Source: an uncultured Schumannella sp.
GTDB lineage: Bacteria; Actinomycetota; Actinomycetes; Actinomycetales; Microbacteriaceae
Direction of reading: 5' to 3'
Assembly (NCBI RefSeq): GCF_905479755.1
Contig: NZ_CAJQNT010000009.1
Span: 7,844-71,843, forward strand
DNA length: 64,000 bases
Shown: positions 1,638 to 20,272 of the stretch, one piece after another
How positions within the stretch are numbered: position 1 is the stretch's first letter
How the letters are laid out: each line of letters begins with the position of its first letter
Program-made: the position numbers and the translations under genes
The notes under the pieces: model-generated
What the model was told of the DNA's origin: nothing
What the model saw: only the letters and a program-made list of their open reading frames with translations
The model's database searches: none

Positions 1638-1660
1638 GCCTCAGTTTGCTGAGGCTTTTT
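1638..1660 (+). terminator. hairpin plus T-tract downstream of the MerR gene
   Basis: GCCTCAG-TTTG-CTGAGGC followed by TTTTT. Confidence 0.5.
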
Positions 1661-1774
1661 CGAGCACCTGATATTTCCCCCACACGTCTGGCACTAAGAG
1701 TGCGGGCCGCGCGCTGCGCGCGCACCTGACCCCCGAGATCGTCCCTCCTGTGACGGTCTTGGGGAGGGGCCGTC

Positions 1775-5332: not shown

Positions 5333-5414
5333 GTAGGGGTTGGTTCTGCCTGCGCGAGGACGTGTGTCTCTCGTACACTGATGACATGTGACCGTGCTCG
5401 CGAGGAGGAGTTCC

Positions 5415-5519
5415 ATGTCGATAGAAGCGGACGCCTCCAGACAGGGTGGCTCCCAGCTCTCAGGCCCATCTGGTGTGGATATTGCCAGTGGGGACAGAGC
5501 GAGGCGGTGGCTGAAGTGA
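5415..5519 (+). CDS. hypothetical 34-aa upstream ORF, translationally coupled to the PHP-ATPase gene
   Basis: Strong SD GAGGAGGAG (5402-5410) lies 4 nt before ATG 5415. Peptide is MSIEADASRQGGSQLSGPSGVDIASGDRARRWLK. Its TGA (5517-5519) overlaps GTG 5516 of the next gene (GTGA). Below the ORF-track length cut-off. Confidence 0.3.
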   Translation: MSIEADASRQGGSQLSGPSGVDIASGDRARRWLK

Positions 5520-8155
5520 TTGACACACAATCATCTGGCGACGACGGGTCGCGTGGTGCGCGCTGGGTTCGTGCGGCTCTGCAGGTGAACCCATACGGGT
5601 ATGTTGGCAACCCTTCGCCCTCCAAGAGCTTCGCCGATGAGGCGGCCTACAACGCTGCACTGATCGTCGAACTAAAGGCTCAGCAGATCGAGCTAATCGC
5701 GATCACGGACCATTGGAACGCGAGTAGTGCGTCTCAGCTCATCGTCGATGTGGAGGCTGCAGGCATCGTCGCACTTCCTGGCTTCGAGGCGAACACCTCT
5801 GAAGGCATCCACTTGCTGGTGATATTCGAACGTGGCACAGCGATTGAGCAGATCACTGCGGCGATCGGCGCTTGTGGGTTGACGCCTGGTGCGGCGAAGG
5901 GCACTACGAAGAAGTCTTACGGCGACATTTTGACGGATATGTGCGGGCGAGGCGCTTTAGTTATTCCGGCACATGCCAACGTCGCAAACGCCGGGCTCCT
6001 GAGTCGAGCCAAGGGCGACACTCTCGCCGAGATGGTTAAGCACCCAGATTTGCTCGCCATCGGCATCACCCCCTCCGCAGCCCCGCTTGGCGATCAGATC
6101 AAGATCCTCAAGGGCACCAGGCCCTACGATCGGCCGCACTCGCTCGTTGCCATTCATGCAGATGATGTATCCGATCCTGCGACCCTGGCCTCTGCTGGTG
6201 CGAGCACTTGGTTCAAGATGAGTAGTCCGAGTTTGCTTGGACTTCGCCACGCAGTGAAGACACCAGAGACGCGGGTTAGCACAGTCGATCCGGCATCGAC
6301 GTCACGCGTGCTGCTCCGCGAAATTTCATGGGATGGCGGCTACCTCGACGGCCAGAGGATCTATCTTGCTGAAGACCTCACGGCGCTCATTGGCGGTCGA
6401 GGTACTGGTAAGTCCACTGCTATCGAAAGTCTCCGCTACGTGTTGGAGATTTCGCCTATCGGTCAAGCATCAAGTGATGACCACAAAGACATGGTCAAAA
6501 ACGTGCTCGGCGCTGGAACGGTAGTCTCGCTTGTTGTGGACGTGGTGACTCCGAGTCCCGCACGTTTCACGATCGAGCGCACCATCAACAACCCGGCAAT
6601 AGTCCGTGACTCCAGCGGTACGCAAACAAGTCAGCGGCCACGCGATGTTGTCGGAAACCTTGAGATCTTTGGTCAACACGAACTCGCCGAGCTGGCCCAG
6701 GACAAAGACCTCATGGCCGAACTGGTCGCGAGAGTGGCAGGAAAGCCAACGTCGCCCGCCGAACGAGATCAGCTTCTGAAAGACCTGGCCGACAATCGGG
6801 ACGATATCGCTAAGCACGAGCGGGATCGCGAAGCGTTGGAGAACGAACTCGCAGACATTCCGCGCCTTACCGAGAGCATGGAAGCCTTCGAGAAGACCGA
6901 CCTTGCGGCGAAGCTTGACCAGAAGACCCGGCTTGATAAGGACGAGGCGGTGCTCACCGAGGCGTCTGAGCGAGTCCAGCAGGTTGAAGACTTCATTAGT
7001 GGATGGGGGCTTGAGGCTCTGAGTGAAGAGCTTCGCGCTGAGCTCGCTGATGTCGATGACTCTCCACGTAAAGGTACTTTGCAGCAACTCAAGCCAGTGC
7101 TCGATGCGCTCGCCAAAGTGTTGGAGCAGACTGCCGCAACGGCGCGTTCCGCCGTTGACGATGCGAAGAAGAAGATCGAAGCGACCGAGCAGGCTTGGAA
7201 AGACGGGACCAAAACTGAGAGCGACGGTGTCGCGGCCGTTCTGCGTGAGTTGGTCGAACAGGGGCACAAGCCTGATGAGTACCTGACTCTGCAGTCGAAT
7301 CTGATTCGGCTGAAGAAGCGAGCGGAAAAGCGGGCTAACTTCGACAAGGAAAAGAAGAAGCTCCTGGGGGCGCGAGCCAAGTTGCTCCGTCAGCTCTCCG
7401 ATATCGACAAGAAGACCGCGTCCGATCTCAAGAAGGCCATCAAAGCTTCAAACGAGGCAACTGCGGGTGCTGTCATAGTGAAGCCGATCGCCTCGCCGGA
7501 TCGAAGCCAGATCAAAGCGGTAGTCTCCAAGCACTTCTCGACCCAACGTAGTCAAATATTCTCGGCCATCGATAAAGATGACTTCAGTGTCGCGGCATTC
7601 GTGGCGGCTGCGCGATCAGGCTTAGACGCTATCTCTGCGCTGGGTATCACTGGGGCTCAAGCGAAAGCCATCGTCGAGTGCGGCGAACCTCTGTTCCGGG
7701 AGTTCGAAGAGCAGACCGTTGGATTGGCAGTGGAGGTGCAGCTGAACGTCGCCGTCAAAGGTCAGCCAGCGACCTGGCGTCGCCTTGAAGACCTATCGAA
7801 GGGCCAACGAGCGACTGCCCTCCTGCTGCTCCTGCTCGGAGCGTCGATGAGCCCTCTGGTCATCGACCAACCCGAGGACGATCTGGACAACCGATTCGTT
7901 TACGACGGAGTTGTCCAGAAGCTGCGATCGTTGAAAGGAACTCGGCAGCTGATTGTCAGTACGCACAATGCTAATGTTCCCGTTCTTGGAGACGCCGAGT
8001 TGGTTGTGACGCTCGAGGCCGATGGACAGCGTGGGCGAACAGTTGCCGATGGCGTCGGATCGCTCGATGACCCGACGGTCCGAAAGTACGCGGAAGACCT
8101 GCTCGAAGGCGGACGTGCGGCGTTCGACGCACGAAAACGCCTCTACGACTTCTGA
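5516..8155 (+). CDS. PHP-domain phosphoesterase fused to a Rad50/SMC-like ABC ATPase
   Basis: PHP-like motifs: ITDHWN (5702-5719), LPGFE, EGIHLLVIF, VIPAHAN. Walker A GGRGTGKST (6392-6418). A long charged Leu/Glu/Lys-rich insert. Signature-like LSKGQRATALLLLLL (from 7793). Walker B LVIDQPEDDLD (7856-7888). STHNANV. The track start ATG 5381 has no SD, so GTG 5516 coupled to the uORF is preferred. Confidence 0.75.
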   Translation: MIDTQSSGDDGSRGARWVRAALQVNPYGYVGNPSPSKSFADEAAYNAALIVELKAQQIELIAITDHWNASSASQLIVDVEAAGIVALPGFEANTSEGIHLLVIFERGTAIEQITAAIGACGLTPGAAKGTTKKSYGDILTDMCGRGALVIPAHANVANAGLLSRAKGDTLAEMVKHPDLLAIGITPSAAPLGDQIKILKGTRPYDRPHSLVAIHADDVSDPATLASAGASTWFKMSSPSLLGLRHAVKTPETRVSTVDPASTSRVLLREISWDGGYLDGQRIYLAEDLTALIGGRGTGKSTAIESLRYVLEISPIGQASSDDHKDMVKNVLGAGTVVSLVVDVVTPSPARFTIERTINNPAIVRDSSGTQTSQRPRDVVGNLEIFGQHELAELAQDKDLMAELVARVAGKPTSPAERDQLLKDLADNRDDIAKHERDREALENELADIPRLTESMEAFEKTDLAAKLDQKTRLDKDEAVLTEASERVQQVEDFISGWGLEALSEELRAELADVDDSPRKGTLQQLKPVLDALAKVLEQTAATARSAVDDAKKKIEATEQAWKDGTKTESDGVAAVLRELVEQGHKPDEYLTLQSNLIRLKKRAEKRANFDKEKKKLLGARAKLLRQLSDIDKKTASDLKKAIKASNEATAGAVIVKPIASPDRSQIKAVVSKHFSTQRSQIFSAIDKDDFSVAAFVAAARSGLDAISALGITGAQAKAIVECGEPLFREFEEQTVGLAVEVQLNVAVKGQPATWRRLEDLSKGQRATALLLLLLGASMSPLVIDQPEDDLDNRFVYDGVVQKLRSLKGTRQLIVSTHNANVPVLGDAELVVTLEADGQRGRTVADGVGSLDDPTVRKYAEDLLEGGRAAFDARKRLYDF

Positions 8156-8199
8156 TAGCACATGCCAACTTCATCGCTGCCCGCTGCGAAGACAGCATC

Positions 8200-9384
8200 A
8201 TGACGGACCAGCCCGAGCCTTCACGACATCAAGAGATTAGTGCGGTTGCGCAGCAGATGCTTGCTCTCGGCGAGTCGGGCCGCTACGAGTTCAAGCGCGA
8301 CGTTGAAGCTGTCTCGGTCGGTCTTCTCGCTGCCCTCGCAAACTGGGTGGCCGCTGAACCGGACCGCGAGGTCGCCCACCTTGTCGTCGGGGTAGATGAG
8401 GTAGAGGACAAGACCACGGGGCTCGTGCACGGGCAACCTTTCGGATTGCCCAGAGGTCTCGATAAGGCCGTATCCCGTATTCAAGACGTGGCGAGCAAGA
8501 CACGACCAGTCCCGGTCGAAGTCTTCATTGTGGAGGAGGGAGTAGCCGAGCCAACGCCGTTCGTCCGCGTAGAGGTGCGCCCGACCATGCCGCCACACTT
8601 CGATGACCAGGGCCGTCGCCAAACGCGGCAGGGCCGTTCCACGCGCGCGCTGACAGATGAAGAGCTGCTACGCATCTACCTGGACCGCGAAGCGGGTAGT
8701 TTTGCGATGCGCTTCCGTCAGGTCAGTGATGAACTTCGTTCAGCTGTCGGCGCCGTGGGCAGTCAGGTCGACCAGATCGCTGAAGGGATCGAGAACAACG
8801 TCGCTACACCAATCCTGGCGCTCACCAGAACCACACACGACGCCGCAGACGCAGCAGAGTCTGCCTCATCTTCCGCAGACTCCGCTGCGTCTTCAGCCGA
8901 TACCGTGTCCTATGAAGTCGAGCATGTACAACGCATCGTTCGTGAGCTTCAGCGAGTCGTCGAGGACATCCAAGACGACTCCACTCAGAACCTGGCATAC
9001 AGAGTCATGCGGCTTCGGCGAAAGGTCTGGTGGAACTTCACTGTCGACACCTGGGAGCACAAGTCCAAGCGCGCGGATCAGTTGGAGTCTCGGCTCCGTG
9101 AGCTTCTCTCCGGCGAGGTCTCCCTTGAGGCAGACCGGAACACCTGGGAACTCCGAGTCTGGCAAGACCTACTCAAGGACCGCCGTGCACAGCGCGGTGA
9201 ACGCGGCACACAGAAGTGGTGGGATGCAGCAATCCGTGAGGTCATCTTGTTCATGGAGAGCCCTGCGTACGCCGCACCCGACCTGCCAGAGCTTCGTGCC
9301 GCGCTTAAGGCCGACCTCGACCACGAGATTGACGATCCCGATAGCGTGACGAACCTATTCCGCAGGCTCGTCGAAGACTCGTAA
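8200..9384 (+). CDS. AlbA_2 (Schlafen-type) DNA-binding domain protein with an unknown helical C-terminal half
   Basis: N-terminus ...LGESGRYEFKRDVE (ES at 8272-8277, EFK at 8287-8295) matches the AlbA_2 hallmark. It is followed by VAHLVVGVDE... The C-terminal ~200 aa is helical and Trp-rich with no motif I recognise. Lies 44 nt downstream of the PHP-ATPase on the same strand. Confidence 0.55.
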   Translation: MTDQPEPSRHQEISAVAQQMLALGESGRYEFKRDVEAVSVGLLAALANWVAAEPDREVAHLVVGVDEVEDKTTGLVHGQPFGLPRGLDKAVSRIQDVASKTRPVPVEVFIVEEGVAEPTPFVRVEVRPTMPPHFDDQGRRQTRQGRSTRALTDEELLRIYLDREAGSFAMRFRQVSDELRSAVGAVGSQVDQIAEGIENNVATPILALTRTTHDAADAAESASSSADSAASSADTVSYEVEHVQRIVRELQRVVEDIQDDSTQNLAYRVMRLRRKVWWNFTVDTWEHKSKRADQLESRLRELLSGEVSLEADRNTWELRVWQDLLKDRRAQRGERGTQKWWDAAIREVILFMESPAYAAPDLPELRAALKADLDHEIDDPDSVTNLFRRLVEDS

Positions 9385-9437
9385 GCAGTCACCCGAAGTA
9401 GTGGTGCTCCTGCTCACCGCGCCTTCGGTCCGTGACG

Positions 9438-9866
9438 TCACAGCAAGTCCTTAGTGTGCGTCCATACGGTCATCCGATGCACCTCGAACCTGCGGCAGAT
9501 GGAGACTACGCTCTCCCCGTTCGTGCGGGCAGTTCGGATAGCGTCTACTTGGCTCTCCGTGAGGGGTGTTCTAGATCGTCTCCCAGGGTTCGCGACAACC
9601 TCCGACTCATCCTCAGCGGCACCGTCTGGTTCGTCGCCGAGAACGAGTTTCGCCTGATTCCACGCGGAACTTAGCCGCTCGAACCTCTGCCAGGTGTTCG
9701 GTTTGAGTCCACCCGCGTCCACTCTTCGAAATGCCTGGTGAGGAGGTCTTTTCTCCGAGTTCACGTCCAGTTCACGGTTGGTGCCGTCAGGTTCCGTGCC
9801 AGACAGCGTGCCAAAAAGGCGATCGAATTGGGTCGTTCCGGACGCAAAACGGCCCCCGATGGTCAC
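9438..9866 (-). pseudogene. remnant ORF with a resolvase-type C-terminal HTH (serine recombinase fragment?)
   Basis: The C-terminus RRSRTPLTESQVDAIRTARTNGESVVSICRRFEVHRMTVWTHTKD resembles the HTH_7 tail of Tn3-type resolvases. The N-terminal 90 aa lacks the catalytic Ser domain. Confidence 0.4.
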
Positions 9867-9897
9867 TTCCGCCGAGGGCTTCCTGCGCGGGGTCAGA

Positions 9898-10315
9898 TCA
9901 GTTGGCGACTGCGCGCAACGCCGCGTCTATGTTGGCGGCGATCACTGCTCCGCGCTCGACCGCAGTCCGCTGATACAGCAGCACCGCCGCCGGGGTCGAA
10001 TGCCCGGCACGGGCTATTAGCTCGGGAATCGTCGCGCCCGACTGGGCTGCAAGCGTCAGTCCGGACGCACGCATGTCGTGGAACGTGAACTGTTCAAGCC
10101 CGACCCTCTTGCGATCACGCTTCCACGCACTCCGGAGTGCAGAGCGCGTCACCGCGCGCCCGTTGCAAGGAAAGCTGGAGACATGGTTTCGGCTTGCCGA
10201 GGGCCTGGACGTTGAACTGGCCACCGGTGTCTCTGCGTTGCATGGCTCTGGCCGCGAGCGCCGCCAAGCGGCAGGAACCTACTGCACGGCGAGATGTCGG
10301 GTCCGCCCGGCACAA
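9898..10315 (-). pseudogene. tyrosine recombinase/integrase, C-terminal catalytic fragment, apparently frameshifted and N-terminally truncated
   Basis: ORF 9898..10224 ends ...FTFHDMRASGLTLAAQSGATIPELIARAGHSTPAAVLLYQ, showing HxxR, the second His, and the nucleophile Tyr. A possible box-I-like piece (ORF 10115..10315, ...ARAMQRRDTGGQFNV) sits in another frame. There is no N-terminal domain before 10448. Confidence 0.6.
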
Positions 10316-10447
10316 ATCCGCCCGGTGTATGTCCTGGCTCGTATTCGGGAACTAGCGAGGCTTCGCTTCGTGATTTCGAGAAACGACGCGGTGCGCTCCT
10401 CGGCCGTCAGATCGACAGATGTCTTCGCCCGTCACTAGCTTTCTTGC

Positions 10448-12292
10448 ATGGAGTTCACCGCAGCCGAACTTGTCGCAGCGATTAGTGAGGTTGACACATC
10501 TGAGGTCATGCTTAGGGAGCCAGTAGAAGCATTCGGCGCGTTTCGCGAGCTGGCGGAGGGCTATCCCGAGGACGGTCCCCACCGAGTCGCGCTCGCGGCA
10601 CTGTCGAACGTGGCCGGGATGATGCTGAAGCCCGACCGCTGGGAATCCCCATACGTACCGATGATGCAGTTCGGGGATCGGCGGAGCTGGCTCCCAGAGG
10701 ATCTCACCGAGGTCCACATCGACTTCCTGCGGCAAGTGCGTTCGCAACTCCCGCCGGGTCAGCTTCGCGCACAGATAGTCGATGTCTTGTTCTTGCGGGT
10801 GACAGATGGTCGTGAACGATACGAGCTGGCGCAGGAGGTCGTACAAGCCTGGATCACGGTGGGGTTGCATGGAGAACTTGATCGAGAAGAAGAAAACGGT
10901 TGGCGTCGTGCAATTGAGATTGCCCTGCGATTCGGATTCGCCTCGCAGGTGACGGAACTTGTCGGCCTTGCGATGGAGCAGATTCGATCGGAGAGAGCAG
11001 CGCCCGCATGGCAATCCGCTCGCGTACTTCATGAGTCTGGTGCCGGACGTGAACACGCGGAGGAGATCAGCAGACGGCTGAGAGACCTGGCGGCCACGGT
11101 CGAGGATCTGCACTTCCGTCGCGAAATCCTCGATCAGGCGCGTCGGTGGGCGACGAGCAGTCAAGACTCTGCGGGCGTCGCCGAGATCGACGAGCAGCTC
11201 GGTGATCTCTGGTGGGAGGAAGCAAAGCGACGGAAGTCGTCATCGCACTTCCTGGCCAGAGACTGCCTTGGAAACGCATACAACCAGTACAAGCGCATCG
11301 AGCGGAGCCGGCGGTCGGCAACGACGAACCGAAGGCTCGCACGATTGCCGCGCAAAATTCGCGAGGAGGGGGAACTTGCGCTCGGTGAGATGAATGCTGT
11401 TGAGTCAGATCCCATCGATCTGACGGTGCTGAGGCAGCAAGCCGACGAAGTACTTAAGGAGGACGACAACCTTCGCGCCCTGGCTTCATGGTTCACTCGG
11501 GTCCCGCTTGATCCGGTCCAACAGGCGCGTGCAACCGCGGAAGAGTCGATGCGCGAACACCCCATTCAGCATCTGTTCTCCCGAACGACCGTGGCAACTG
11601 ATGGCCGAACGGTGCAGCACTCCGCGAGTGCTCGCGGGCAAGGGGAAGTCCCAGGCGATGTCTGGAGCGAGATGCTGCGCCACTGGGAGTTGAAGGTTGG
11701 AATTCTTGCCCACGGCTACATCTGGCCAACGCTCGTCGAACTGAGCACCAAGTACAAGCTCGCGCCCGGCGACTTCGCGCTAATGGTTCGATCCTCTGCG
11801 TTCGTCCCACCTGAGCAAGAGCGGCACTATGTGATGGCGCTCCACAACGGCTACTACGGCAGACTAAGCGAGTCGATCTTCGTGCTCGCCCCTACCGTCG
11901 AGGCGTGTGTCCGTGCGTGTCTGCAGAGGGCTGGGATCGAGACCAGGAACCATCGCTCGGACGACACCGAGATCGAACCAGGACTGAGTGCGCTGATGGA
12001 GCTGGATGGTGTCGATGACGCGCTCACACCTGACCTGGCCTGGAACATCAGAGCGCTCTACTGCGGGCCGCTTGGCCCGAACTTGCGCAACCGAGTGGCC
12101 CACGGGCTTCTCTCCGAATCCGAGAGCAGCAGTGGCTACGTGCTGTTCGCTTGGTGGCTCGCACTACGACTCGCGTTCGTGCCGTTCTTCAACCATGTGA
12201 TGGATGACTCAACGAAAGCTGAGGGCAGAAGCAGTTCAAAAGAAGAGCCAGAATCTGGACAGACCCCACCTCGTGATGATTCTGAAGAGTGA
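10448..12292 (+). CDS. large DUF4209-like protein with C-terminal Rx4H (HEPN/Abi_C-like) motif
   Basis: 614 aa. The C-terminal GPLGPNLRNRVAHGLLSESE contains RNRVAH (12086-12103), which I recall as the conserved core of DUF4209. The acidic tail is low complexity. No SD before ATG 10448. Confidence 0.5.
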   Translation: MEFTAAELVAAISEVDTSEVMLREPVEAFGAFRELAEGYPEDGPHRVALAALSNVAGMMLKPDRWESPYVPMMQFGDRRSWLPEDLTEVHIDFLRQVRSQLPPGQLRAQIVDVLFLRVTDGRERYELAQEVVQAWITVGLHGELDREEENGWRRAIEIALRFGFASQVTELVGLAMEQIRSERAAPAWQSARVLHESGAGREHAEEISRRLRDLAATVEDLHFRREILDQARRWATSSQDSAGVAEIDEQLGDLWWEEAKRRKSSSHFLARDCLGNAYNQYKRIERSRRSATTNRRLARLPRKIREEGELALGEMNAVESDPIDLTVLRQQADEVLKEDDNLRALASWFTRVPLDPVQQARATAEESMREHPIQHLFSRTTVATDGRTVQHSASARGQGEVPGDVWSEMLRHWELKVGILAHGYIWPTLVELSTKYKLAPGDFALMVRSSAFVPPEQERHYVMALHNGYYGRLSESIFVLAPTVEACVRACLQRAGIETRNHRSDDTEIEPGLSALMELDGVDDALTPDLAWNIRALYCGPLGPNLRNRVAHGLLSESESSSGYVLFAWWLALRLAFVPFFNHVMDDSTKAEGRSSSKEEPESGQTPPRDDSEE

Positions 12293-12624
12293 ATGATCCC
12301 CCTCCGGGCGGTGCTCTGAGCTGGGATGCTGGAAAAGGACCCTTGCCCCACTCGGCGCAAAGACTGCAAGTGGTGGTGACTCACCCATTCGCAACGCCCT
12401 CGGTGCAGGTGGATGGCCAGGCCCAGATCTCAGCTCCCGCTCGAAGGCCTACCCGGAGACTCTCCGGCTTGGTGTCGTCGCTCCGGCCTGAGGGTCCGAC
12501 GAGGGATTCGAGGCCGGGTGGGAGAGGCTGGAGCGCCCAAAGGCGCGGACCCCTACGGTTACCCCGTAGCTGGATCCTGCATCAATCACATAGTGAATGC
12601 AACTCGCGGACTGAGGGTCAGAAA

Positions 12625-13305
12625 CTACCGACTTGTCTGCGCATGCCGCTTGGATGCAGCCGCCCTGACCTCTCGGCGCAGGTCGGCGTGGTTGATGTCG
12701 CTCTCCAGCGCCTTCCGCCGTCGACCGTCCTCTTCGTCAAGCCAGCTCTGGAAGTCGGTCGCTGCCGCCTCAACGTCGGCCGCATTGAGCGCTGTCGCAA
12801 CACCGAGCGCTGCCTCCACCCACGACTCTTGCATCTCAGCCTCGGTGAGCACGGGGGCCGACTGCTCAAGGAACTGATTTAGCGGCAGGTCGAGCCGTGC
12901 ATGATCTCTGACGATCCGCTGCTGGAGGACCAGAATGCCCTGACGCGAGAGGGATGCGATGCGATTCTCCAGCTTCAGTGAGGAGGATGGGACAGCCGTG
13001 GTATCCAGAAACTTGGCCGCGTAGTGTTTCCCGTCTTCGCGCAGGTCAGGAAGGGGCATGACCCGGAGGTGACGATCCCAGTCGCCCACCTTCTCGTAGC
13101 TTCCCACCGGTGCGACCTGGATGCGCTGAACTAGTTGCACCCCGCGTCTCATGCTGCATGGATGCATGACGACCTGCACGGTCAGGGGCGTGTCACCAAG
13201 TCCGGGCACAATAACGTTCTCGAACACGTCGCCTTGAAGAATCGGACGCGCGTAGGAAACGCCGTTCCGTTCTTCGTAAAGGTCATCTGAGGTAATGGCA
13301 TCCAT
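12625..13305 (-). CDS. hypothetical protein (226 aa), last gene of the cassette
   Basis: Non-repetitive protein-like composition. Its start lies 9 nt after the stop of the upstream HTH gene. N-terminus RPILQGDVFENVIVPG...VQVVMHPCSM; no family recognised. Confidence 0.55.
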   Translation of the reverse strand: MDAITSDDLYEERNGVSYARPILQGDVFENVIVPGLGDTPLTVQVVMHPCSMRRGVQLVQRIQVAPVGSYEKVGDWDRHLRVMPLPDLREDGKHYAAKFLDTTAVPSSSLKLENRIASLSRQGILVLQQRIVRDHARLDLPLNQFLEQSAPVLTEAEMQESWVEAALGVATALNAADVEAAATDFQSWLDEEDGRRRKALESDINHADLRREVRAAASKRHAQTSR

Positions 13306-13314
13306 GCGGCCGCA

Positions 13315-13953
13315 TCACTTGCCTCGGGGGCGGATGATCCGCTCACCTGCAGCATCCACCACGACCTCGTAGTTGCTGCGGTGATCCCGCCAGCCCGGCA
13401 TCGCCTGGTCTAGGACGCTCTCGGCGTCCTGGCGTTGCTCAGCGATGTCGATGAGTGCCTCGGCATGCCCAGTGACGTACAGGTCGATGGGTCGAATGGT
13501 GTACCCGCTCGGGAGCGGGAGCTTCATTTCCATCCACTGTGCTGGGTCGGCGACGGCGCTTGTCTCCAGTACGTCCAGCAAGGCGGCAATCCGACCCAAG
13601 CTGTTTCGGTTCTCGGCACTCGCGGCACCACCGTTGCGCCACTTGCGGATAGCGGAGACGCTCACCCCGGCAGCAGCGGCGACATCGGACCAAGACATAC
13701 CGCGAGAGGAGGTCAGCTCTGCGAGCAGCTCCGGCACACCTGCGCTCGTTGCCTTCGCGTGCGCCCGGTCATGGAGGTCGAGCGTACGGGTGCGCCCGTG
13801 GAGCGCATGCACGTCGTCGCGGAGCAGGTCCACATCGGTTCGTAGCCACGACGCGCTGATGGAGATTGCACGGGTGGCGTTCGCCTCTGCGTAGTCAGAC
13901 GTCACAGCAGGCGCAATTGCGGTGGCCGTGGTGCGCTCAAGCGTGGAAGTCAT
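13315..13953 (-). CDS. XRE-type helix-turn-helix domain protein (212 aa)
   Basis: Central MSWSDVAAAAGVSVSAIRKWRNGG is an HTH_3/XRE-like motif. The start overlaps the upstream gene stop by 4 nt (13950-13953). Confidence 0.65.
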   Translation of the reverse strand: MTSTLERTTATAIAPAVTSDYAEANATRAISISASWLRTDVDLLRDDVHALHGRTRTLDLHDRAHAKATSAGVPELLAELTSSRGMSWSDVAAAAGVSVSAIRKWRNGGAASAENRNSLGRIAALLDVLETSAVADPAQWMEMKLPLPSGYTIRPIDLYVTGHAEALIDIAEQRQDAESVLDQAMPGWRDHRSNYEVVVDAAGERIIRPRGK

Positions 13954-14828
13954 TTTTCGCTCCTTCGGAACGTGTTGCGTGCATCGTCGGTGATGGAAGC
14001 TTGGAACGTGGCCCCCGACGGTCCATGCACAGCGTCAAGCGTGCTGGCGACCACATCAACGGACAACAGCGTGGCATCTGGTCCACTGAAGTCCTGGTAG
14101 CCATCCAGGTCGAGCACAAAAAAGGGCAAGTTCTGGTCGAACGGCGCGCGAACAAGCGCGGCAGGTGAGACCACAGCCCCCTGCGGGAGCGCAGCGAAGC
14201 GGAAGTTCAGTCCGCGATCCTGTCCGAAGTGATAGACCACGGTGCCTTCCGCCTGGAGCACCTCTGCGTCCGAGGGACCCAGGGCCAACTGGCCGAGCAG
14301 GCTTGGGTCAATCCACTTCGCCCAATCGCGGACGTTGGCGATGCCCGCATCGGGAAGTCGAATCTCATCGATGTACCGAAGACCGATACGCCGGATCGCG
14401 GGGGTCACGCCTGCCTCCACAAGCGCCCGGCAGCAGGTCAGAAGCTGCTCGCGGAACTCGGGGAAGTGAGAGTAGGCCGTCGTCTCCAGTGAGAGTCGAT
14501 CTGAGGTCAGCGTCGCCACGGCTGTACTTGAGGTGTTCTTGAAGTTGCGGCCGGGTGTCTGCCTGATCTGAGGCGCAGCACCGGGACGGACCTCAAAATC
14601 GGCCTGCTGGAACTGATCCTGGACGGGCAACATCGGCTCAAGCGCGATGGAGATGGCGTCAACGATCTCTTGTTGACGTAGGCGGGCGGAGTCGCTGAAG
14701 CGGACCTCCGCGGCCACGAGGGCGAGCGGTGAGGACGGGAACACTTCCCTGTGTGCGTAGTCCATAATCAAATCAGCGTAGTGGGGTTGAACCTGGATTC
14801 GCACCGAATCTCGCACCAGAACATGCAC
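13950..14828 (-). CDS. TIGR04255-like family protein
   Basis: IRRIGLRYIDEIRLP (comp. 14367-14396) and the N-terminal ...PLALVAAEVRF match my recollection of the TIGR04255 family. The track start is GTG 14828. ATG 14765 (MDYAHREVFPSSPL...) is the more likely start. Confidence 0.55.
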   Translation of the reverse strand: MHVLVRDSVRIQVQPHYADLIMDYAHREVFPSSPLALVAAEVRFSDSARLRQQEIVDAISIALEPMLPVQDQFQQADFEVRPGAAPQIRQTPGRNFKNTSSTAVATLTSDRLSLETTAYSHFPEFREQLLTCCRALVEAGVTPAIRRIGLRYIDEIRLPDAGIANVRDWAKWIDPSLLGQLALGPSDAEVLQAEGTVVYHFGQDRGLNFRFAALPQGAVVSPAALVRAPFDQNLPFFVLDLDGYQDFSGPDATLLSVDVVASTLDAVHGPSGATFQASITDDARNTFRRSEK

Positions 14829-14902
14829 CGATACTACGACCCGAACCTATCGAGAGGCTGTGAAGCCACGCGTCTGGAATGCGTTTGGGCGTTACTCCCG
14901 CG

Positions 14903-15088
14903 TTAAGACCGCCGAGCGCTCTCGACCAAAAGATGCACCGCGGTGGACTCGAACCTCACGTACCTTCCCACTTTGAGGAACTCGATCCGGCGCTCGCGGA
15001 CAAGACGACGGACGAAGCTCTCCGGGACGGCAAGCTGCTTCGCAACCCCGTCAATGGTCAACAGCGGATGAGCCTTGTTGTGGGTCAT
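14903..15088 (-). CDS. excisionase/AlpA-type HTH DNA-binding protein
   Basis: 61 aa. LLTIDGVAKQLAVPESFVRRLVRERRIEFLKVGRYVRF matches the HTH_17 excisionase pattern. RBS AAGGAGG lies upstream of ATG 15088. Confidence 0.7.
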   Translation of the reverse strand: MTHNKAHPLLTIDGVAKQLAVPESFVRRLVRERRIEFLKVGRYVRFESTAVHLLVESARRS

Positions 15089-15265
15089 CGGCGGACCTCC
15101 TTTCGTCTACTGCGCCGCCGACCCAACGCACGGAGACCAACGCTGTGCCAGATTTCGTGCCACTAGCACCGAAGACTTCTGGCACGCGGCGTTCAACGAC
15201 GCTCAGGAGACGGCGCTCGTCTCCAGAAACAACGGGGGTTCCGCTGGTCGGATTCGGGCCGCTTT

Positions 15266-15311
15266 CTGCTTTGCAAGCAGGAGGTCAGGGGTTCGATTCC
15301 CCTAGGCTCCA
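15266..15311 (+). other. 3' 46 nt of tRNA-Ala(UGC): anticodon stem-loop 3' part, T-arm and acceptor 3' strand only (att-site remnant)
   Basis: CTGC-TTTGCAA-GCAG carries anticodon TGC (15272-15274). T-arm is AGGGG-TTCGATT-CCCCT. The acceptor 3' strand AGGCTCC+A implies a G3:U70 pair. No complementary 5' acceptor strand or D-arm lies upstream. Confidence 0.7.
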
Positions 15312-15425
15312 CTCCGCCAGCTGACCCGCCGCCGCTCCTGCGGCGTGTGCCGCTCCGCGCACCGAGCGCGGTCGCTGCGCTTCGCGGGGGTTCGTCGCAC
15401 GATTGTCGTCGTCGGAGTCGGGGTC

Positions 15426-17966
15426 TTACGGGGCGGTAAGCAGGCCGGTTTCTTCGAGAACGTCGCGGAGCGCATCCCGGGAACTGACGCCGAGCTTTCG
15501 GTAGGCCGCCTGCAATTGGTTGTCGACCGTACGCACCGAGATCCCGAGTTCTTCGGCGATCTCCCGGGAACGCTGGCGCCGCGCGGCCGCGCGGGCCACG
15601 TCGAGCTCGCGCGGAGTGAGCAGCGGGCGGTCGGCGGGAGCCGCGGTGGGCGCATCGATGGCGGCGCGGAGGGCGAGCGCCGTCGCGGCCAGTCGTCGGC
15701 GGGCCGATGCGGAGATGTCGTCGCGCTCGACCCTCGCCAAGATGTCGGCGGCGGCGGCCGTGAGACCGGTGCTCGCGAGAGCGGTGGCCGCCGTGATCAC
15801 CTGCTCGACGCGCCCCGAGCGCAGCGCGGCGGCCGCCGCGGCGACCGCGAGGGCCGGCTCGATGGTCTCGATCGCGTTTCGGCACAGTGCGTCCGCCACC
15901 TCGGCGGTGCGGTCGATGTCGTCGAAACGCAGCGCGCTCGCCAGAGTGAGCGAGGCCAGGAAGTCGTACGACGAGTCGATCGCATCGTCGACCGCGCGAA
16001 GGATGACCTCGGCGGCGCGCCTCGGCTCGCCGTCGGCCGCGGCGAGGAATGCCTCGCACTCGGCGCGGGTGAGCAGTGCGACACCGCTGACCGGCCCCGC
16101 CGCGTCAAGCTCCCCCAGCATGCGGCGCGCCACCTCGATGTCGCCGCGCTGGGCCGCGATCGACGCGCGCAGTCCGCGGGCGAACGGTGTCATCTCGCCG
16201 CCGTCCCAGCGGCGCAGCTGTTCCAGCGCGAGCTCGGCGAGAGCCTGCGCTTCGCCAAGTCGACCATCGTGAGCCCGCTGCCACGCAAGCATCGCGGTGA
16301 AGAACCCGACCTCGTCATAGGCCTCGGCGCGCACCGACTCCAGGTACGAGGCGGCTGCGGCCGCCTCGCCGGCGGCCCGCAGCGAGCAGACGCGTTCGAT
16401 GCCGACGGCCATCGCCGCGGTGGGGGCGTCGGCACCGAGCACCTCGCGCGGAGCGGTGAGCGTGCGCGCGGCCGCCCGCGCGACGCCGAACTCGCCCCGA
16501 GCGGAGGCGGCAATCGTTGTCGCGATCGCGCTGCGCACCTCGACGGCCGACGACTCCTCGGCGAGGCTGCGCCAGCGCCAGAGGTCGGCATCGAGCGGGG
16601 CGGCATCACCGGCGTCGAGGGCTCGCCGCACCTGTTCGCCCTGCGCCACGGCGGCGGCCGGGTCGCCGCGACGAAGGGCGAGGTGCTCCCCGCGGCGGCG
16701 CGCGAGGGCGATGCGCTCGCGCGGCTTCGCGGCCAGCGCCGCGGCCTCGTCGAAGTGCGCGTCGGCGGCGTCCAGCTCGCCGATCACCGACGCCGCCGCC
16801 CCGGCGGCGAGCTGCGCGGCGAATGCCGCCGGACGCCGGCCGGGGAGCTGGGCCGCTGCCGCCGCCAGCCGCGCGGCGCTGCGCGCGTCGCCCGTCGCGG
16901 TGGCGTATGACGCCGCCCAGGTGAGTTCGGACGGATCGGTGGGTCGCCCGGCGCGCAGTTCCCACTCGGCCGCACGGAAACGCCGGGCGGGCCGCGCATC
17001 CCGTCGGAGCAGCCGCAAGGCCTCGCCGAGGATGCCGGTCACCTCGGGGCCGCGCTCCACCGCCTCCGCGATCAGCGGGTGCGCGATGCTGACCCGGCCC
17101 GACTCCTCGACGAGCAGCCCGCGCCGGACCAGCTCCGAAATGGTGCGCGGCGCATCGAAAGTCTCGATGATGTCGGTCGCGGCGACCGGCTGCGTGATCG
17201 CCACGAGGCACATCATCGCGCGGGAGGCGGCGGGAAGCTCCTCGACGCGGGAGTCGATGAGCGCAGCGAGGGCCGTCGGGGAGCGGTCCGGTTGGATCTC
17301 GACCTGGGTGCCTCGGTGCAGCACCCGCCCGCCGTCGATCGCCGACTCGACGATCATCCGAAGGTGCAACGCGTTTCCGCCGGTCTCCCAGGCGAGACGG
17401 CGAACATCCTCGTCGCGCGCCGGAAGTCGGAAGCGACGATGGAGCAGCTCGGCGATCTCGTCGAGTTCGAGCCCCACGAGTTCGTGGCGCTGCAGCAGAC
17501 CGGAAGTGCCCAACTCCTCGAGTCGCGGAGGAAGAGCTTCGAGGGCGCGCGCGGTCGCGATCACGGTGGCGCCGAAGCCGGTGATGAGTCGCGCGACGGC
17601 CTCAGCCGACCGTTCGTCCAGCCGCGGGGCGTCGTCGACCAGCACGAGAGGCGGGGTCGGGCGCGAGCCGAGCACCTGCACGAGTTCGGTCAGGGCGTGC
17701 TCGCGTGCCGGGGGACCCAGCGCGTCCGCCACCGCCGCGAATGCGCCGAGCGGCACCGACGACTGCTCGGCGAGACCCTGCACGATGATCGGCGCGGAAC
17801 CGGCGTGCCGCTGTGCCACGACCCGCGCTAGCGCCGATTTGCCGACGCCCGCCGGACCGTGGAGGAGATGGATGACTCCCGGGTGACGTGCGACCTCGTC
17901 CGCCACCTGGGCCAGCAGGCGTTCGCGCGGAACCAACGGCCAGGTGGCGCGGTGCTCTCCGGTCAT
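15426..17966 (-). CDS. LuxR-family regulator with N-terminal AAA ATPase (LAL/MalT-like)
   Basis: Walker A HGPAGVGKSALA. C-terminal HTH LTPRELDVARAAARRQRSREIAEELGISVRTVDNQLQAAYRKLGV. Start moved to ATG 17966 (MTGEHRATWPL...), because the track start 18167 overlaps the next gene. Confidence 0.85.
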   Translation of the reverse strand: MTGEHRATWPLVPRERLLAQVADEVARHPGVIHLLHGPAGVGKSALARVVAQRHAGSAPIIVQGLAEQSSVPLGAFAAVADALGPPAREHALTELVQVLGSRPTPPLVLVDDAPRLDERSAEAVARLITGFGATVIATARALEALPPRLEELGTSGLLQRHELVGLELDEIAELLHRRFRLPARDEDVRRLAWETGGNALHLRMIVESAIDGGRVLHRGTQVEIQPDRSPTALAALIDSRVEELPAASRAMMCLVAITQPVAATDIIETFDAPRTISELVRRGLLVEESGRVSIAHPLIAEAVERGPEVTGILGEALRLLRRDARPARRFRAAEWELRAGRPTDPSELTWAASYATATGDARSAARLAAAAAQLPGRRPAAFAAQLAAGAAASVIGELDAADAHFDEAAALAAKPRERIALARRRGEHLALRRGDPAAAVAQGEQVRRALDAGDAAPLDADLWRWRSLAEESSAVEVRSAIATTIAASARGEFGVARAAARTLTAPREVLGADAPTAAMAVGIERVCSLRAAGEAAAAASYLESVRAEAYDEVGFFTAMLAWQRAHDGRLGEAQALAELALEQLRRWDGGEMTPFARGLRASIAAQRGDIEVARRMLGELDAAGPVSGVALLTRAECEAFLAAADGEPRRAAEVILRAVDDAIDSSYDFLASLTLASALRFDDIDRTAEVADALCRNAIETIEPALAVAAAAAALRSGRVEQVITAATALASTGLTAAAADILARVERDDISASARRRLAATALALRAAIDAPTAAPADRPLLTPRELDVARAAARRQRSREIAEELGISVRTVDNQLQAAYRKLGVSSRDALRDVLEETGLLTAP

Positions 17967-18118
17967 CCGCGCACCCCCCGACTGTCGGATCTGCTCCTGC
18001 TCCCCGAAGTTAGCGTACGGAGCGGTCGCCGCGGGGGACAGACTCCGGCCGACACGACGAAGGCCTTCGACGCGGTCTGGCGACCGGGCCGAAGGCCTTC
18101 CCCGTGTGGTGAGGGGGC

Positions 18119-18691
18119 TTAGACCTCGTCGACGTCGGCTTCGCCGGCCTCGATGTCTTCGACCCACAGGTCATCGTCGGCGCGGAGCGTCTGCCACGCG
18201 GCGTAGGCGACGCTCGCGACCGCGAGAACGCCGAGTCCGATCAGCACGTAGGTGCCGGGGCCGGGCGACGACTTCACGGGTTCCGGTGCGACGGCCTTCC
18301 GGGCGCGCGAACTGAGGGTGGCGGTGGCCGAGCTGGCACGCTTCACCACGTCGCGCACGTGCGGGTCCTTCGCGGCTTCGAGCACCGCGAGCGCCGAGCC
18401 GATCGCACCCGACACGGCGGGGATCACGTCGTCGGCGAGCTTGCCGCGCGCGTCGCGCGACACGGCGCGACCCTTGGCGACGCCGGTCGCGAACAGCGGC
18501 TTGACGCGGTCTTCGTAGCCTCCGCGCACGCGCGGGCCCACCTCTTCACGCGCGTAGTTCGCGGCCTGACGGCGGGCGTCGCGCAGCACATCGGCGGCGT
18601 GCTCGAGCGTCTCGCGCTGCTCATCCCACAACTGGTCGGCCGATCGCTTGAGCTTCTTCAGCTCCCGCTGGCGTTTGCGTGACAGTCCCAT
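18119..18691 (-). CDS. conserved actinobacterial C-terminally membrane-anchored protein
   Basis: MGLSRKRQRELKKLKRSADQLWDEQRE..., with a single TM (YVLIGLGVLAVASVAYAAW) and an acidic tail. Start at ATG 18691 inside ORF 18119..18784. Confidence 0.6.
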   Translation of the reverse strand: MGLSRKRQRELKKLKRSADQLWDEQRETLEHAADVLRDARRQAANYAREEVGPRVRGGYEDRVKPLFATGVAKGRAVSRDARGKLADDVIPAVSGAIGSALAVLEAAKDPHVRDVVKRASSATATLSSRARKAVAPEPVKSSPGPGTYVLIGLGVLAVASVAYAAWQTLRADDDLWVEDIEAGEADVDEV

Positions 18692-18827
18692 GGCGTCCTC
18701 CGTCTGCGGTCTGCGGCGTGTCCTTCCATCCTGCCAGGTCGCCCAACCCGGTCCAAGGGTCCAAGGGCCCGCCCGGCTGGGCATCCGCTGAGAGCGGGCC
18801 CCATGACGCGCATGACAGAATTGTGGG

Positions 18828-19367
18828 ATGCCTCAACCCACTGCCATCGCCACCATGCACACGAGCCTCGGCGACATCCGCCTCAACCTGTTCGGAAACC
18901 ACGCCCCCAAGACGGTCGACAATTTCGTCGGCCTCGCGACGGGAACCAAGGAGTGGACGCACCCGCAGACGGGTGTCACCTCGACCACCCCGCTCTACGA
19001 CGGAGTGATCTTCCACCGCATCATCACGCAGTTCATGCTTCAGGGCGGCGACCCGCTCGGCATGGGCGTCGGCGGCCCGGGTTACGAGTTCGACGACGAG
19101 ATCAACCCCGAACTCGACTTCACGCAGCCCTACATCCTCGCCATGGCGAACGCCGACACGCGCGGCGGACGCGGCACCAACGGTTCGCAGTTCTTCATCA
19201 CGACGGTGCCCACGACCTGGCTTCAGGGCAAGCACACGATCTTCGGCGAGGTCGCCGATGACGAGTCGAAGAAGGTCGTCGACGCGATCGAGGCCGTCGA
19301 GACGGATGCGCGCGACAAGCCGTTGACGGACGTCGTGATCACGAGCGTCACCGTCGAATCCCTGTAG
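18828..19367 (+). CDS. ppiA: peptidyl-prolyl cis-trans isomerase (cyclophilin type)
   Basis: HTSLGDIRLNLFGNHAPKTVDNFVGL...FHRIITQFMLQGGDP...GTNGSQFFIT. Confidence 0.9.
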   Translation: MPQPTAIATMHTSLGDIRLNLFGNHAPKTVDNFVGLATGTKEWTHPQTGVTSTTPLYDGVIFHRIITQFMLQGGDPLGMGVGGPGYEFDDEINPELDFTQPYILAMANADTRGGRGTNGSQFFITTVPTTWLQGKHTIFGEVADDESKKVVDAIEAVETDARDKPLTDVVITSVTVESL

Positions 19368-20272
19368 TGACCGGCGAGGCGGCGACCGCGGCGGGGGTCT
19401 GCTATCGGCACCCCGACCGACAGAGCTGGGTGCTGTGCCAGCGCTGCGGGCGCACCATCTGCCCGGAGTGCCAGACGCAGGCCGCGGTCGGCGTCCAGTG
19501 CCCGGAATGCGTCCGGGAGGGGCGCGCGGCAACGCGGCCGACGGCCTCGCGGTCTCGCCTCGCGCGCATGTTCCGGCCCGGGGGCACCACTCCCGTCGTG
19601 TCGATGTCGATCGGCGCGCTCTGCGTGCTGCTGTACGTGCTGCAGCTGGTCACCGGCGGCGCCGTCACCTCGGCCCTGTTGATGAACCCGAGCGTGATCG
19701 TGAGCGAGCCGTGGCGCCTGCTGACCAGCGCGTTCGTGCACTCGCCGAGTTCGTTCCTGCACATCGCGTTCAACATGTACGCGCTCGCGATCTTCGGCCC
19801 GGTGCTGGAGAGCTTCCTCGGTCGTAGCCGGTTCCTCGCGATGTATCTCCTGGCGGCGTTCGGCGGCAACGTCGCGGGCGTGCTGATCTACCAGTTGGCG
19901 GTGGTGACCGGCGGCGCATCGATCGTGCTGACGAACGGCTTCCTGCAGCCGGCCGCCTCGCTGGGTGCCTCGGGCGCGATCTTCGGGCTGATGGGCGCGC
20001 TGCTCGCGCTGCGCAAGGCGCTCGGGGTGCAGATCACGCAGCTGCTGGTCGTGCTCGGCCTCAACGTGGTGATCGGATTCCTGGTGCCCAACATCGCCTG
20101 GGAGGCCCACTTGGGCGGTCTCGCGGTCGGCTTCGCGGTGGGAACCCTGTTCTCGCGGTTGCGCCGTCCGACTCAGAAGCGGCAACGCATCCTGGGGCTC
20201 GTCACGATCGGGGCGGTGCTCGTGGTCATCTGCATCGCGAGCGTGCTCGCCGCTCCCGGCGCCTACTCCTAG
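19367..20272 (+). CDS. rhomboid family intramembrane serine protease
   Basis: N-terminal zinc-ribbon CYRHPDRQSWVLCQRCGRTICPEC. Rhomboid motifs HIAFNMY and GASGAIFGLMGA. Confidence 0.85.
   Translation: MTGEAATAAGVCYRHPDRQSWVLCQRCGRTICPECQTQAAVGVQCPECVREGRAATRPTASRSRLARMFRPGGTTPVVSMSIGALCVLLYVLQLVTGGAVTSALLMNPSVIVSEPWRLLTSAFVHSPSSFLHIAFNMYALAIFGPVLESFLGRSRFLAMYLLAAFGGNVAGVLIYQLAVVTGGASIVLTNGFLQPAASLGASGAIFGLMGALLALRKALGVQITQLLVVLGLNVVIGFLVPNIAWEAHLGGLAVGFAVGTLFSRLRRPTQKRQRILGLVTIGAVLVVICIASVLAAPGAYS

Follow-up and report, generated by a model that had tools for sequence, protein, structure and literature searches.

A gene cluster containing three co-directional genes and their putative operator was identified at positions 12625-14845 (minus strand) of a 64,000-nucleotide (nt) stretch of DNA from an uncultured Schumannella sp. 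(contig NZ_CAJQNT010000009.1). The whole stretch is referred to here as the window. The three genes encode a protein of the TIGR04255 family, an XRE-type DNA-binding protein with a helix-turn-helix (HTH) and a 226-amino-acid (aa) protein here named U226, respectively. With moderate confidence, the cluster is considered to be an autonomous, autoregulated tripartite toxin–antitoxin or abortive-infection module located on an integrated, decayed mobilisable island. This reading is drawn from the strict co-inheritance of the three genes, the geometry of their coupling, the toxin fold predicted for U226, the HTH of the second gene product, the conserved repeat array and the residence of the module on mobile elements. 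The features of the module and of the gene upstream are the following.

12625-13305, minus strand: U226 gene (gene 3), 226 aa, MazF/PemK fold by predicted structure.
13315-13953, minus strand: XRE-type HTH gene (gene 2), 212 aa, HTH_3 match.
13950-14765, minus strand: TIGR04255-family gene (gene 1), 271 aa from the ATG at 14765, NCBIfam match.
14775-14780, minus strand: putative -10-like hexamer TACGCT (TAnnnT), read from the sequence.
14786-14845, minus strand: putative operator of five direct repeats, 12-nt period, GGT(G/T)C core.
14903-15088, minus strand: excisionase-type HTH gene, 61 aa, TIGR01764 and HTH_17 matches; a gene of the island, outside the conserved module.

An earlier interpretation of the window, made without database searches (the sequence-only reading), had described four minus-strand genes in this region, and all four open reading frames (ORFs) were located at these positions. 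Its annotations also held: the 61-aa protein is of the excisionase type, the first long ORF (292 aa) belongs to TIGR04255, the 212-aa protein carries an XRE-type HTH and the 226-aa protein belongs to no recognised family. Neither the 292-aa nor the 226-aa protein matched a well-characterised metabolic family. The ATG of gene 2 overlaps the TGA of gene 1 by 4 nt (ATGA), and gene 3 starts 9 nt past the stop codon of gene 2. In type II toxin–antitoxin systems the antitoxin gene usually lies upstream and the two genes are tightly coupled. The module has this layout: its genes are co-directional, coupled through the 9-nt gap and the 4-nt overlap, always co-occurring, and the gene for the DNA-binding partner is located upstream.

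Conservation of the three genes was followed from U226. A search of 5.8 billion proteins yielded 145 relatives, all of them unnamed and devoid of Pfam domains, and a U226 scan of one genome per species yielded 23 genome loci, the gene content of which was determined by tblastn with the window proteins. In all 23 genome loci, the TIGR04255, HTH and U226 genes were found tightly packed and co-directional, in this order. The hosts include Mycobacterium, Amycolatopsis, Kribbella, Nonomuraea, Intrasporangium and many uncultured Actinomycetota, together with one member of the Thermoleophilia and one of the Dormibacteraeota; many of the loci come from metagenome assemblies. Five of the most remote U226 relatives listed were all preceded by genes of the TIGR04255 family (6e-29 to 1.6e-37) and of the HTH-protein family (1e-36 to 1e-71). 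The triad was also detected on six IMG/VR viral contigs and on a Rhodococcus plasmid, and a related version (class (b), described below) is present on a Kocuria plasmid. The joint occurrence of the three genes in genomes, remote relatives, viral contigs and plasmids goes far beyond chance and bears out their grouping in the sequence-only reading.

The surroundings of the triad are variable. Within the fetched DNA, homologues of the excisionase and of PDC-S39, the genes flanking the window triad, were found at none of the 23 related loci. The 129 neighbouring proteins fall into 142 different Pfam families, of which phage integrase (4) and AAA_16 (3) are the commonest and the rest are mostly housekeeping enzymes. 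Clustering of the neighbouring ORFs from the 23 loci revealed no recurrent gene except a DUF1883-TIR gene in one sub-clade. Judged from gene content, the triad is a self-contained mobile module set in very different surroundings. In two loci derived from metagenome-assembled genomes, L018 (6001-6661) and L021 (6001-6634; L numbers denote individual loci), the U226 homologue is frameshifted next to intact TIGR04255 and HTH genes. One metagenome-assembled genome supplied both L021 and L013, and in L013 the copy is intact. These frameshifts could equally well represent toxin decay or sequencing or assembly error, and they were not used as evidence.

The DUF1883-TIR gene begins 0-20 nt after the U226 stop codon in 11 of the 23 loci (L002-L004, L009-L012 and L015-L018; e.g., L003 6702-7487), and in some of these its start overlaps or abuts that stop. 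The encoded protein matches the PADLOC models PDC-S66 (3.6e-62) and a ThsB-like model (1.6e-42). The triad might on this basis be the receiver and effector half of a Thoeris-like TIR signalling system, with the window copy as a remnant that has lost its TIR gene. This possibility is regarded as rather improbable. The TIR-carrying loci form one sub-clade, in which the DUF1883-TIR proteins are about 80% identical and the triad proteins 70-75% identical, with about 50% identity of the latter to the remaining loci, and the gene is therefore an addition specific to that lineage. It is missing from the other 12 genome loci, from every plasmid and viral copy and from the window, where no tblastn match to DUF1883-TIR was obtained anywhere and a non-coding stretch of 325 nt separates U226 from a convergent PDC-S39 gene. 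No nucleotide-signal sensor domain of the SLOG, Macro or SAVED type was recognised in the triad proteins. As far as gene order tells, DUF1883-TIR is a lineage-specific fourth gene of the operon.

The U226 protein showed no match in Pfam (E<=1), NCBIfam, PADLOC or PHROGs. Its structure was predicted by AlphaFold2 from a 27-sequence alignment, and the model (predicted local distance difference test, pLDDT, 86.9; predicted template modelling score, pTM, 0.85) combines a β-rich domain at residues 10-119 with four long helices at 121-225. The 50 highest-ranking Foldseek matches in the PDB were without exception MazF-family toxins, from S. aureus, B. subtilis, B. anthracis, B. cereus and M. tuberculosis. 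The best match had E 1.5e-4 and probability 1.00 over about 122 columns, and the template modelling score (TM-score) to the target ranged from 0.62 to 0.74 over 114-131 aligned columns. At the level of fold, the predicted N-terminal domain of U226 (about residues 10-120) is a MazF/PemK-type β-barrel. A PDB sequence search with the U226 family profile returned no MazF and nothing meaningful. On its model, U226 is best described as a MazF-fold protein and not as a demonstrable member of the MazF family.

The invariant residues of U226 are Q24-G25-D26, Q44, H48-P49-C50, M52-R53, R61 and W76, and further R81, M83-P84-L85, R115, L127-Q-Q-R130 and R137. They include the conserved motifs QGD (24-26), H48-P-C50-x-M-R53, R81-x-MPL and LQQR (127-130). 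This content of histidine, cysteine and arginine would be enough for an active site directed at nucleic acids. A HEPN-like Rx4-6H motif in the C-terminal helix was considered and rejected, as its histidine occupies no conserved column. Exhaustive HMMER searching of 1.84 billion cluster representatives gave 711 U226-family representatives at 50% clustering (E<=1e-3), and among 150 listed representatives nearly all are 200-260 aa long. Two apparent fusions were rejected. P0432 (479 aa) has an HTH-like N-terminus and a U226-like C-terminus joined by a low-complexity segment and was put down to a frameshift or an error of gene calling. In P0145 (397 aa), the N-terminal extension looks like part of an adjacent gene that gene calling has joined on.

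The second gene encodes a protein with an HTH_3 domain (PF01381) at residues 83-114 (Pfam, 25.7 bits against a cutoff of 23, E 1.2e-5). Among 30 members of its family, 20 match HTH_3 and 27 match HTH_23. The protein contains a variable helical N-terminal region (1-75), the HTH (76-133) and a conserved C-terminal domain (135-212); outside the HTH, no region of the family was recognised by Pfam or the PDB. The residues L77, G85, W88, A92, S98, A101, K104, W105, R106, W140, P186 and W188 are invariant in family alignment A5, and the recognition helix VSVSAIRKWR is nearly so. The 212-aa protein is proposed as both the autorepressor and the antitoxin of the module.

Five direct repeats with an exact 12-nt period are located upstream of gene 1; the first G of each core lies on the minus strand at 14841, 14829, 14817, 14805 and 14793. 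The pattern GGTDC-N7-GGTDC-N7-GGTDC occurs only here in the 64 kb of the window, with 0.00 occurrences expected from 100 shuffles. Related arrays of 3-5 direct repeats with a GGT(A/G)C core are present upstream of TIGR04255 in essentially all 23 genome loci. When the DNA upstream of gene 1 was aligned for all loci, 45 of 108 core-to-core spacings were exactly 12 nt. The four-unit pattern was found in 10 fetched loci, once in each and always upstream of TIGR04255. The 12-nt phasing was also seen in L025, L028, L031, L032, L034, L038, L039 and L042, where TIGR04255 is only 25-30% identical to that of the window, and the array is retained among modules whose proteins share only 25-50% identity. 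The array is probably, to judge from its position and conservation, the operator of the module's own HTH protein. The GTG at 14826-14828, the apparent start of the 292-aa ORF, is part of a GGTGC operator repeat, so that a repeat has created a spurious upstream start.

Between the end of the arrays, about 25-35 nt ahead of the start codon, and the start itself lies a TAnnnT hexamer at a distance of 7-9 nt from the start. The window has TACGCT, 9 nt before the ATG at 14765 and with no Shine-Dalgarno sequence in between; most related loci have TAGGTT, TATAGT or TAGATT at the equivalent distance of 7-9 nt. The arrangement suggests a leaderless transcript, or one with a very short leader, initiated from TACGCT. 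Since a scan with the sigma-70 consensus gave no promoter site, the TAnnnT element is the sole basis of the proposed promoter.

The array and the -10-like element stand between the excisionase gene and gene 1, and the triad therefore has its own control region. The sequence-only reading had instead placed the excisionase and the triad in one cassette of four. The identity of the excisionase is clear (TIGR01764 'excise', E 2.9e-12 in NCBIfam, and HTH_17 in Pfam), and a four-gene operon would agree with the common direction of the genes, the gap of just 74-137 nt and the failure to find a terminator-like site on the minus strand between the excisionase gene and gene 1. This arrangement is nevertheless very improbable, as the excisionase has no counterpart in the fetched DNA of the 23 related loci and the conserved control elements separate it from gene 1. 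The claim of a four-gene cassette was accordingly given up in favour of the triad.

The product of gene 1 matches the TIGR04255 family hidden Markov model (HMM) with 119.6 bits against a cutoff of 30 (E 1.9e-34, model positions 2-251 of 252). TIGR04255 is a curated family, described as 'sporadically distributed' and not known to have an assigned function. The protein has no Pfam match and hence none to SecB. The long ORF at 13950-14828 would encode 292 aa from the GTG at 14828. Because homologue alignments begin at residue 24 of this ORF in 20 of the 23 genome loci (tblastn) and the conserved repeat array sits inside it, between the GTG at 14828 and the ATG at 14765, the true start is read as the ATG at 14765 and the longer ORF as over-extended, as the sequence-only reading had also proposed. 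For a sequence motif quoted in that reading, the stated range of 14367-14396 on the complementary strand takes in the first 10 residues alone (IRRIGLRYID); the whole 15-aa motif runs to 14352.

The AlphaFold2 model of the TIGR04255 protein (pLDDT 92.2, pTM 0.88) shows the order β-α-β-β-β-β-α, twice. In BFVD, the model matches several TFIID/TATA-box-binding proteins of giant viruses (E 5.7e-4 to 1.3e-2) and an unnamed protein of 202 aa (E 1.2e-7, TM-score to target 0.61), among others. The protein is read, at the level of the model, as a pseudo-dimeric saddle resembling the TATA-box-binding protein (TBP). Med18, EspG, PYR/PYL and MHC were rejected as fold identities, their PDB matches being insignificant and their TM-scores <0.2, and a PDB sequence search with the TIGR04255 profile gave nothing meaningful. 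The residues P13, R22, P47, Y98, R126, G128, R130, Y131, D219, D221, F254 and T259 are invariant across Actinomycetota, Gammaproteobacteria and Cyanobacteriota. Among them, R22, R126-Y131 and D219/D221 are located in predicted strands.

TIGR04255 genes head a wider set of cassettes. In every plasmid or phage locus with enough downstream DNA, TIGR04255 comes first and is followed by two tightly packed co-directional genes. The plasmid carriers are Rhodococcus, Acinetobacter baumannii, Chroococcidiopsis, Paenarthrobacter and Kocuria. The viral carriers are eight IMG/VR contigs, an Acinetobacter contig deposited as phage and the Burkholderia pseudomallei phage vB_SBP21, the cassette of which also has matches in six sibling phage genomes (seven Burkholderia pseudomallei phages altogether). 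The first genes of 10 distant modules match the TIGR04255 HMM at 6e-29 to 1.5e-47. At least four types of partner pair were distinguished, namely HTH with an 'HPC' MazF-fold protein, HTH with a 'QTCD' MazF-fold relative and two unrelated pairs.

Class (a): a protein of the 212-aa HTH type and a U226-type protein with '[HQ]HPC'; the window, the 23 genome loci, L025, L028-L032, L034 and L037-L043.
Class (b): an HTH protein related in the HTH region only (1e-5 to 1e-8) and a 270-330 aa protein with '[ST]Q[ST]CD[IL]'; L024, L026, L027, L035 and L045.
Class (c): an unrelated 169-aa protein and an unrelated 141-aa protein; L033 5986-7731, a low-GC viral contig, between terminase and portal.
Class (d): an unrelated 175-aa protein and an unrelated 236-aa protein; Burkholderia phages, L044 4471-6501.

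A homologue of the 212-aa HTH protein is present in every class (a) locus. A first profile comparison of the class (a) and class (b) third genes was insignificant (probability 3%). The third gene of the Kocuria module matches the U226-family HMM at 1.1e-9, and with this protein as a bridge the comparison reached a probability of 90% (E 1.5e-6, 119 columns), pairing QGD with QGD, HPC with QTC and VAPV with VAPV. The N-terminal domains of the two third-gene families are therefore homologous and have a conserved cysteine in common. Upstream of the class (b) modules (L024, L026, L027, L035 and L045), two 12-nt-spaced direct repeats with a GTGTGAA/TTCACA core were seen by eye. The differing core suggests that operator and HTH co-vary. 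One viral-contig cassette is situated between the terminase and portal genes, and the class (d) cassette of vB_SBP21 lies in the variable region between integrase and portal, beside an annotated toxin/antidote pair. The variable regions of P2-like phages are known to be reservoirs of anti-phage genes (PMC9122126).

A broader reading, drawn from about 15 TIGR04255-seeded loci, is put forward tentatively; all of the observations are compatible with it. TIGR04255 may be a TBP-like sensor of nucleic acids or nucleotides that heads a hitherto unrecognised family of three-gene immune or addiction cassettes across phyla, on plasmids, integrative elements and temperate phages, with a constant sensor and an exchangeable regulator–effector pair, the HTH-containing types being under a 12-bp-phased direct-repeat operator. 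The same distribution can be turned the other way. In that case the enzymatic role of effector or toxin would fall to TIGR04255, the MazF-fold protein would act without catalysis as an adaptor, inhibitor or sensor, and the HTH protein would regulate both. TIGR04255 is the sole component common to all four cassette classes, its residues R22, Y98, R126, R130, Y131, D219, D221 and T259 are invariant across phyla and have the look of an active site or a binding site, the genes in second and third place can be exchanged, and U226 has no sequence match to catalytic MazF. This reversal of roles is considered unlikely. Against it stands the usual pattern of modular immune systems, where the effector is the part that varies. 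U226 has a strongly conserved Cys/His/Arg cluster, of which the cysteine is kept even in the divergent class (b) proteins, and a TBP-like fold is typically a binding platform and not a catalytic scaffold (PMC8266594).

The association with mobile elements likewise admits a reading without a toxin, in which the triad is a circuit regulating lysogeny, excision or transfer, with the HTH protein as a CI-like repressor and its two partners as co-regulators or anti-repressors. The triad adjoins xis in the window. On the Rhodococcus, Kocuria and Paenarthrobacter plasmids its relatives have relaxase or coupling-protein genes as neighbours, and in the Burkholderia phage and the Chroococcidiopsis plasmid they adjoin int. 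Operators made of repeats are typical of repressors, and the HTH of the Acinetobacter homologue matches Phage_CI_repr at 4.5e-6. Such a circuit is nonetheless held to have a low probability. Most of the 23 genome loci lack adjacent mobility genes, with integrase accounting for only 4 of the 129 neighbours, and in the fetched DNA the excisionase was not found at any other locus. The MazF-toxin fold and, in one sub-clade, the TIR gene inside the operon would be unexpected for a lysogeny switch. In the window, the integrase of the island is reduced to a fragment (9898-10224), yet the triad is intact. Each of the rival explanations fits fewer observations than a toxin–antitoxin or abortive-infection module.

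For such a module, the following mechanism is proposed, with sensor, regulator and effector roles suggested for the individual genes. The operon would be transcribed from its own promoter just upstream of the ATG at 14765. The XRE-type HTH protein would bind the five 12-nt-phased repeats cooperatively, head to tail, over the -35 zone and thereby repress the operon. U226 would be the growth-inhibiting effector and would probably cleave RNA or block another nucleic-acid process, and the HTH protein would neutralise it through its conserved C-terminal domain (W140, P186 and W188). The TIGR04255 protein, translationally coupled to the HTH gene, may serve as a subunit that binds a nucleic acid or a ligand and either detects infection and frees the toxin or steers the toxin to its substrate. 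By analogy, it could act in trans in a manner comparable to the TBP-like domains that RnlA needs for RNA binding. The module might serve to stabilise mobile elements, to exclude incoming phages, or both.

Several results weigh against this interpretation. By sequence, U226 showed no Pfam match to MazF/PemK (PF02452) at E<=1, and hhalign gave a probability of 0.1% between the profile of its N-terminal domain and a small MazF/Kid alignment of four sequences, three of them entered by hand. Because no sequence similarity is detectable, the catalytic Arg/Thr pair of MazF cannot be mapped on U226, and a predicted MazF-like fold by itself is no proof of nuclease activity or toxicity. The model of the TIGR04255 protein had no significant structural match in the PDB (Foldseek); the TBP-like assignment leans on predicted viral structures and on the order of secondary-structure elements, and the invariant arginine, tyrosine and aspartate residues leave this protein compatible with an enzymatic role. 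That the HTH protein binds the repeats and U226 is a proposal. None of the triad proteins matched any of the 5027 models of PADLOC-DB v2, which include the candidate PDC systems, and the same was true of their homologues and of the variant cassettes. 'TIGR04255' is mentioned in none of about 8 million searchable papers. A general association with defence islands was also rejected: the neighbours are mostly housekeeping genes, and most of the related loci do not lie in recognisable defence islands. The sequence-only reading had proposed a toxin–antitoxin or abortive-infection cassette at the edge of an island. Its functional part gains support from the MazF fold of U226, the HTH gene upstream and the conserved putative repeat operator; the context of an island edge or defence island is not general.

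In the remaining comparisons, the HTH protein gave only weak HTH-level matches in PADLOC (mad1 0.002, RmrA 0.008), and PHROGs offered no function for the module. In literature searches on DUF1883 with TIR and on tripartite toxin–antitoxin systems with XRE and MazF components, no description of it was found.

The island surrounding the window triad has PDC-S39 on one side of the triad and the excisionase gene on the other, and also carries a Ppl-like gene. Its other features are the following.

1074-1583, plus strand: MerR regulator, island backbone.
1775-5332, plus strand: TrwC/MobF relaxase-helicase, 1185 aa, island backbone.
5381-8155, plus strand: Ppl-like PHP/ATPase gene (ABC/SMC-type), 924 aa; partial match to PADLOC 'Ppl' (2.5e-33) in the C-terminal part.
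8200-9384, plus strand: 394-aa gene following the Ppl-like gene, weak Schlafen/AlbA_2 match (0.0099).
9438-9866, minus strand: 142-aa ORF adjoining the integrase fragment, island backbone.
9898-10224, minus strand: C-terminal fragment of a tyrosine integrase, 108 aa, island backbone.
10448-12292, plus strand: PDC-S39 candidate, 614 aa, DUF7380 and DUF4209; PADLOC single-gene defence candidate (2.6e-134).
15266-15312, plus strand: 3' remnant of tRNA-Ala(TGC), anticodon arm to acceptor end; probable attachment (att) site.
15426-18167, minus strand: LuxR-family regulator, 913 aa, with an N-terminal AAA_16 ATPase domain; just outside the island.

The PDC-S39 gene is convergent with the triad. The Ppl-like gene and the 394-aa gene after it may constitute a two-gene defence system within the island. 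The guanine-plus-cytosine (GC) content is 0.57-0.63 across about 5000-15000 and 0.69-0.77 to the right, and the step lies just right of the tRNA-Ala remnant. By eye, positions 15266-15312 presumably span an actinobacterial tRNA-Ala(UGC) from its anticodon arm to its acceptor end. ARAGORN called an atypical 78-nt tRNA-Ala at 15235-15312. Rfam at gathering score gave no tRNA within 1-20000; at E<=1 in 15100-15450, the matches listed included only an 18-nt T-arm piece (15286-15303), under tmRNA, and two further matches of the same clan scored lower. A second copy of the remnant was not found in the window. The piece is therefore a partial 3' remnant, such as integrated elements carry at one of their ends, and probably the att site bounding the island, as it had been taken to be from the sequence. 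The 913-aa LuxR-family gene, in surroundings with a GC content of 0.72-0.77, is probably a core-genome gene that marks the island boundary. The island looks integrated and mobilisable but decayed, the last because no intact integrase accompanies the excisionase.

With these results TIGR04255 gains a concrete setting that can be put to the test: its gene invariably opens a compact three-gene cassette on mobile DNA and is accompanied by the gene for a regulator and, in the commonest form, that for a toxin-fold protein. If a function in toxin–antitoxin or defence is true, the module would represent a new tripartite architecture that combines a TBP-like protein, an XRE repressor and a divergent MazF-fold effector with a conserved cysteine. 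Hundreds of 'hypothetical' protein clusters would then become annotatable (711 representatives at 50% identity in the U226 family alone), and a clean system would be available for the way in which a third component links sensing to toxin release. The putative 12-nt-phased operator is an easily testable case of a repressor acting on direct repeats.

Among known systems, the module resembles MazEF and Kis-Kid (PemIK) in the MazF/PemK β-barrel predicted for the N-terminal domain of U226, in the gene for a DNA-binding protein located directly upstream in the operon with a putative upstream operator that suggests autoregulation, and in its occurrence on plasmids, prophages and islands. Unlike MazF, U226 lacks sequence similarity to PF02452, is double the size owing to its four-helix C-terminal domain and has conserved residues (QGD, HPC and several Arg) that differ from the MazF catalytic set. 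The module also differs from MazEF in that the partner of U226 is a 212-aa three-domain XRE protein and not a MazE/AbrB or ribbon-helix-helix (RHH) antitoxin, the putative operator is a 12-nt direct-repeat array and not a palindrome, and a third obligatory gene, TIGR04255, is present.

The anti-phage toxin RnlA has the architecture TBP1-TBP2-HEPN, in which TBP1 is required for binding of the RNA substrate, and TBP-like domains are the substrate-binding modules of RnlA and RNase H3 (PMC8266594). As in RnlAB and LsoAB, two TBP-like domains are combined in the module with a toxin nuclease fold. Unlike in RnlAB, the TBP-like pair is encoded on a separate polypeptide and the nuclease-like fold is of the MazF type and not HEPN; the antitoxin candidate, unlike RnlB, is an HTH repressor. 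RnlA was not among the Foldseek PDB matches of the TIGR04255 model, and the likeness is therefore one of analogy and not of homology.

Tripartite toxin–antitoxin systems such as TAC (HigB-HigA-SecB-like), ω-ε-ζ and PaaR-PaaA-ParE likewise consist of three co-transcribed genes, which encode an accessory protein besides the toxin and its neutraliser or regulator. In ω-ε-ζ, the repressor ω binds arrays of short direct repeats, which resembles the phased array of the module. The accessory protein of the module, however, is a 271-aa TBP-like protein and neither a SecB-like chaperone, as in TAC, nor a small RHH regulator, as in ω-ε-ζ. It is encoded first and not last as in TAC, and, unlike in the other tripartite systems, it is the most widely conserved part and recurs with unrelated partner pairs. 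The TIR gene that is fourth in the operon at 11 of the 23 loci ties the module to immune-type genes of the Thoeris or PDC-S66 type. Unlike in Thoeris, neither the window nor most module lineages have this gene, there is no ThsA-type effector, and the triad proteins match no Thoeris model. In its logic, the module is close to type II and tripartite toxin–antitoxin systems, and each of its three parts is different: a TBP-like first gene, a three-domain XRE protein with a putative direct-repeat operator and a MazF-fold protein of double size that has a conserved cysteine and lacks the sequence signature of MazF.

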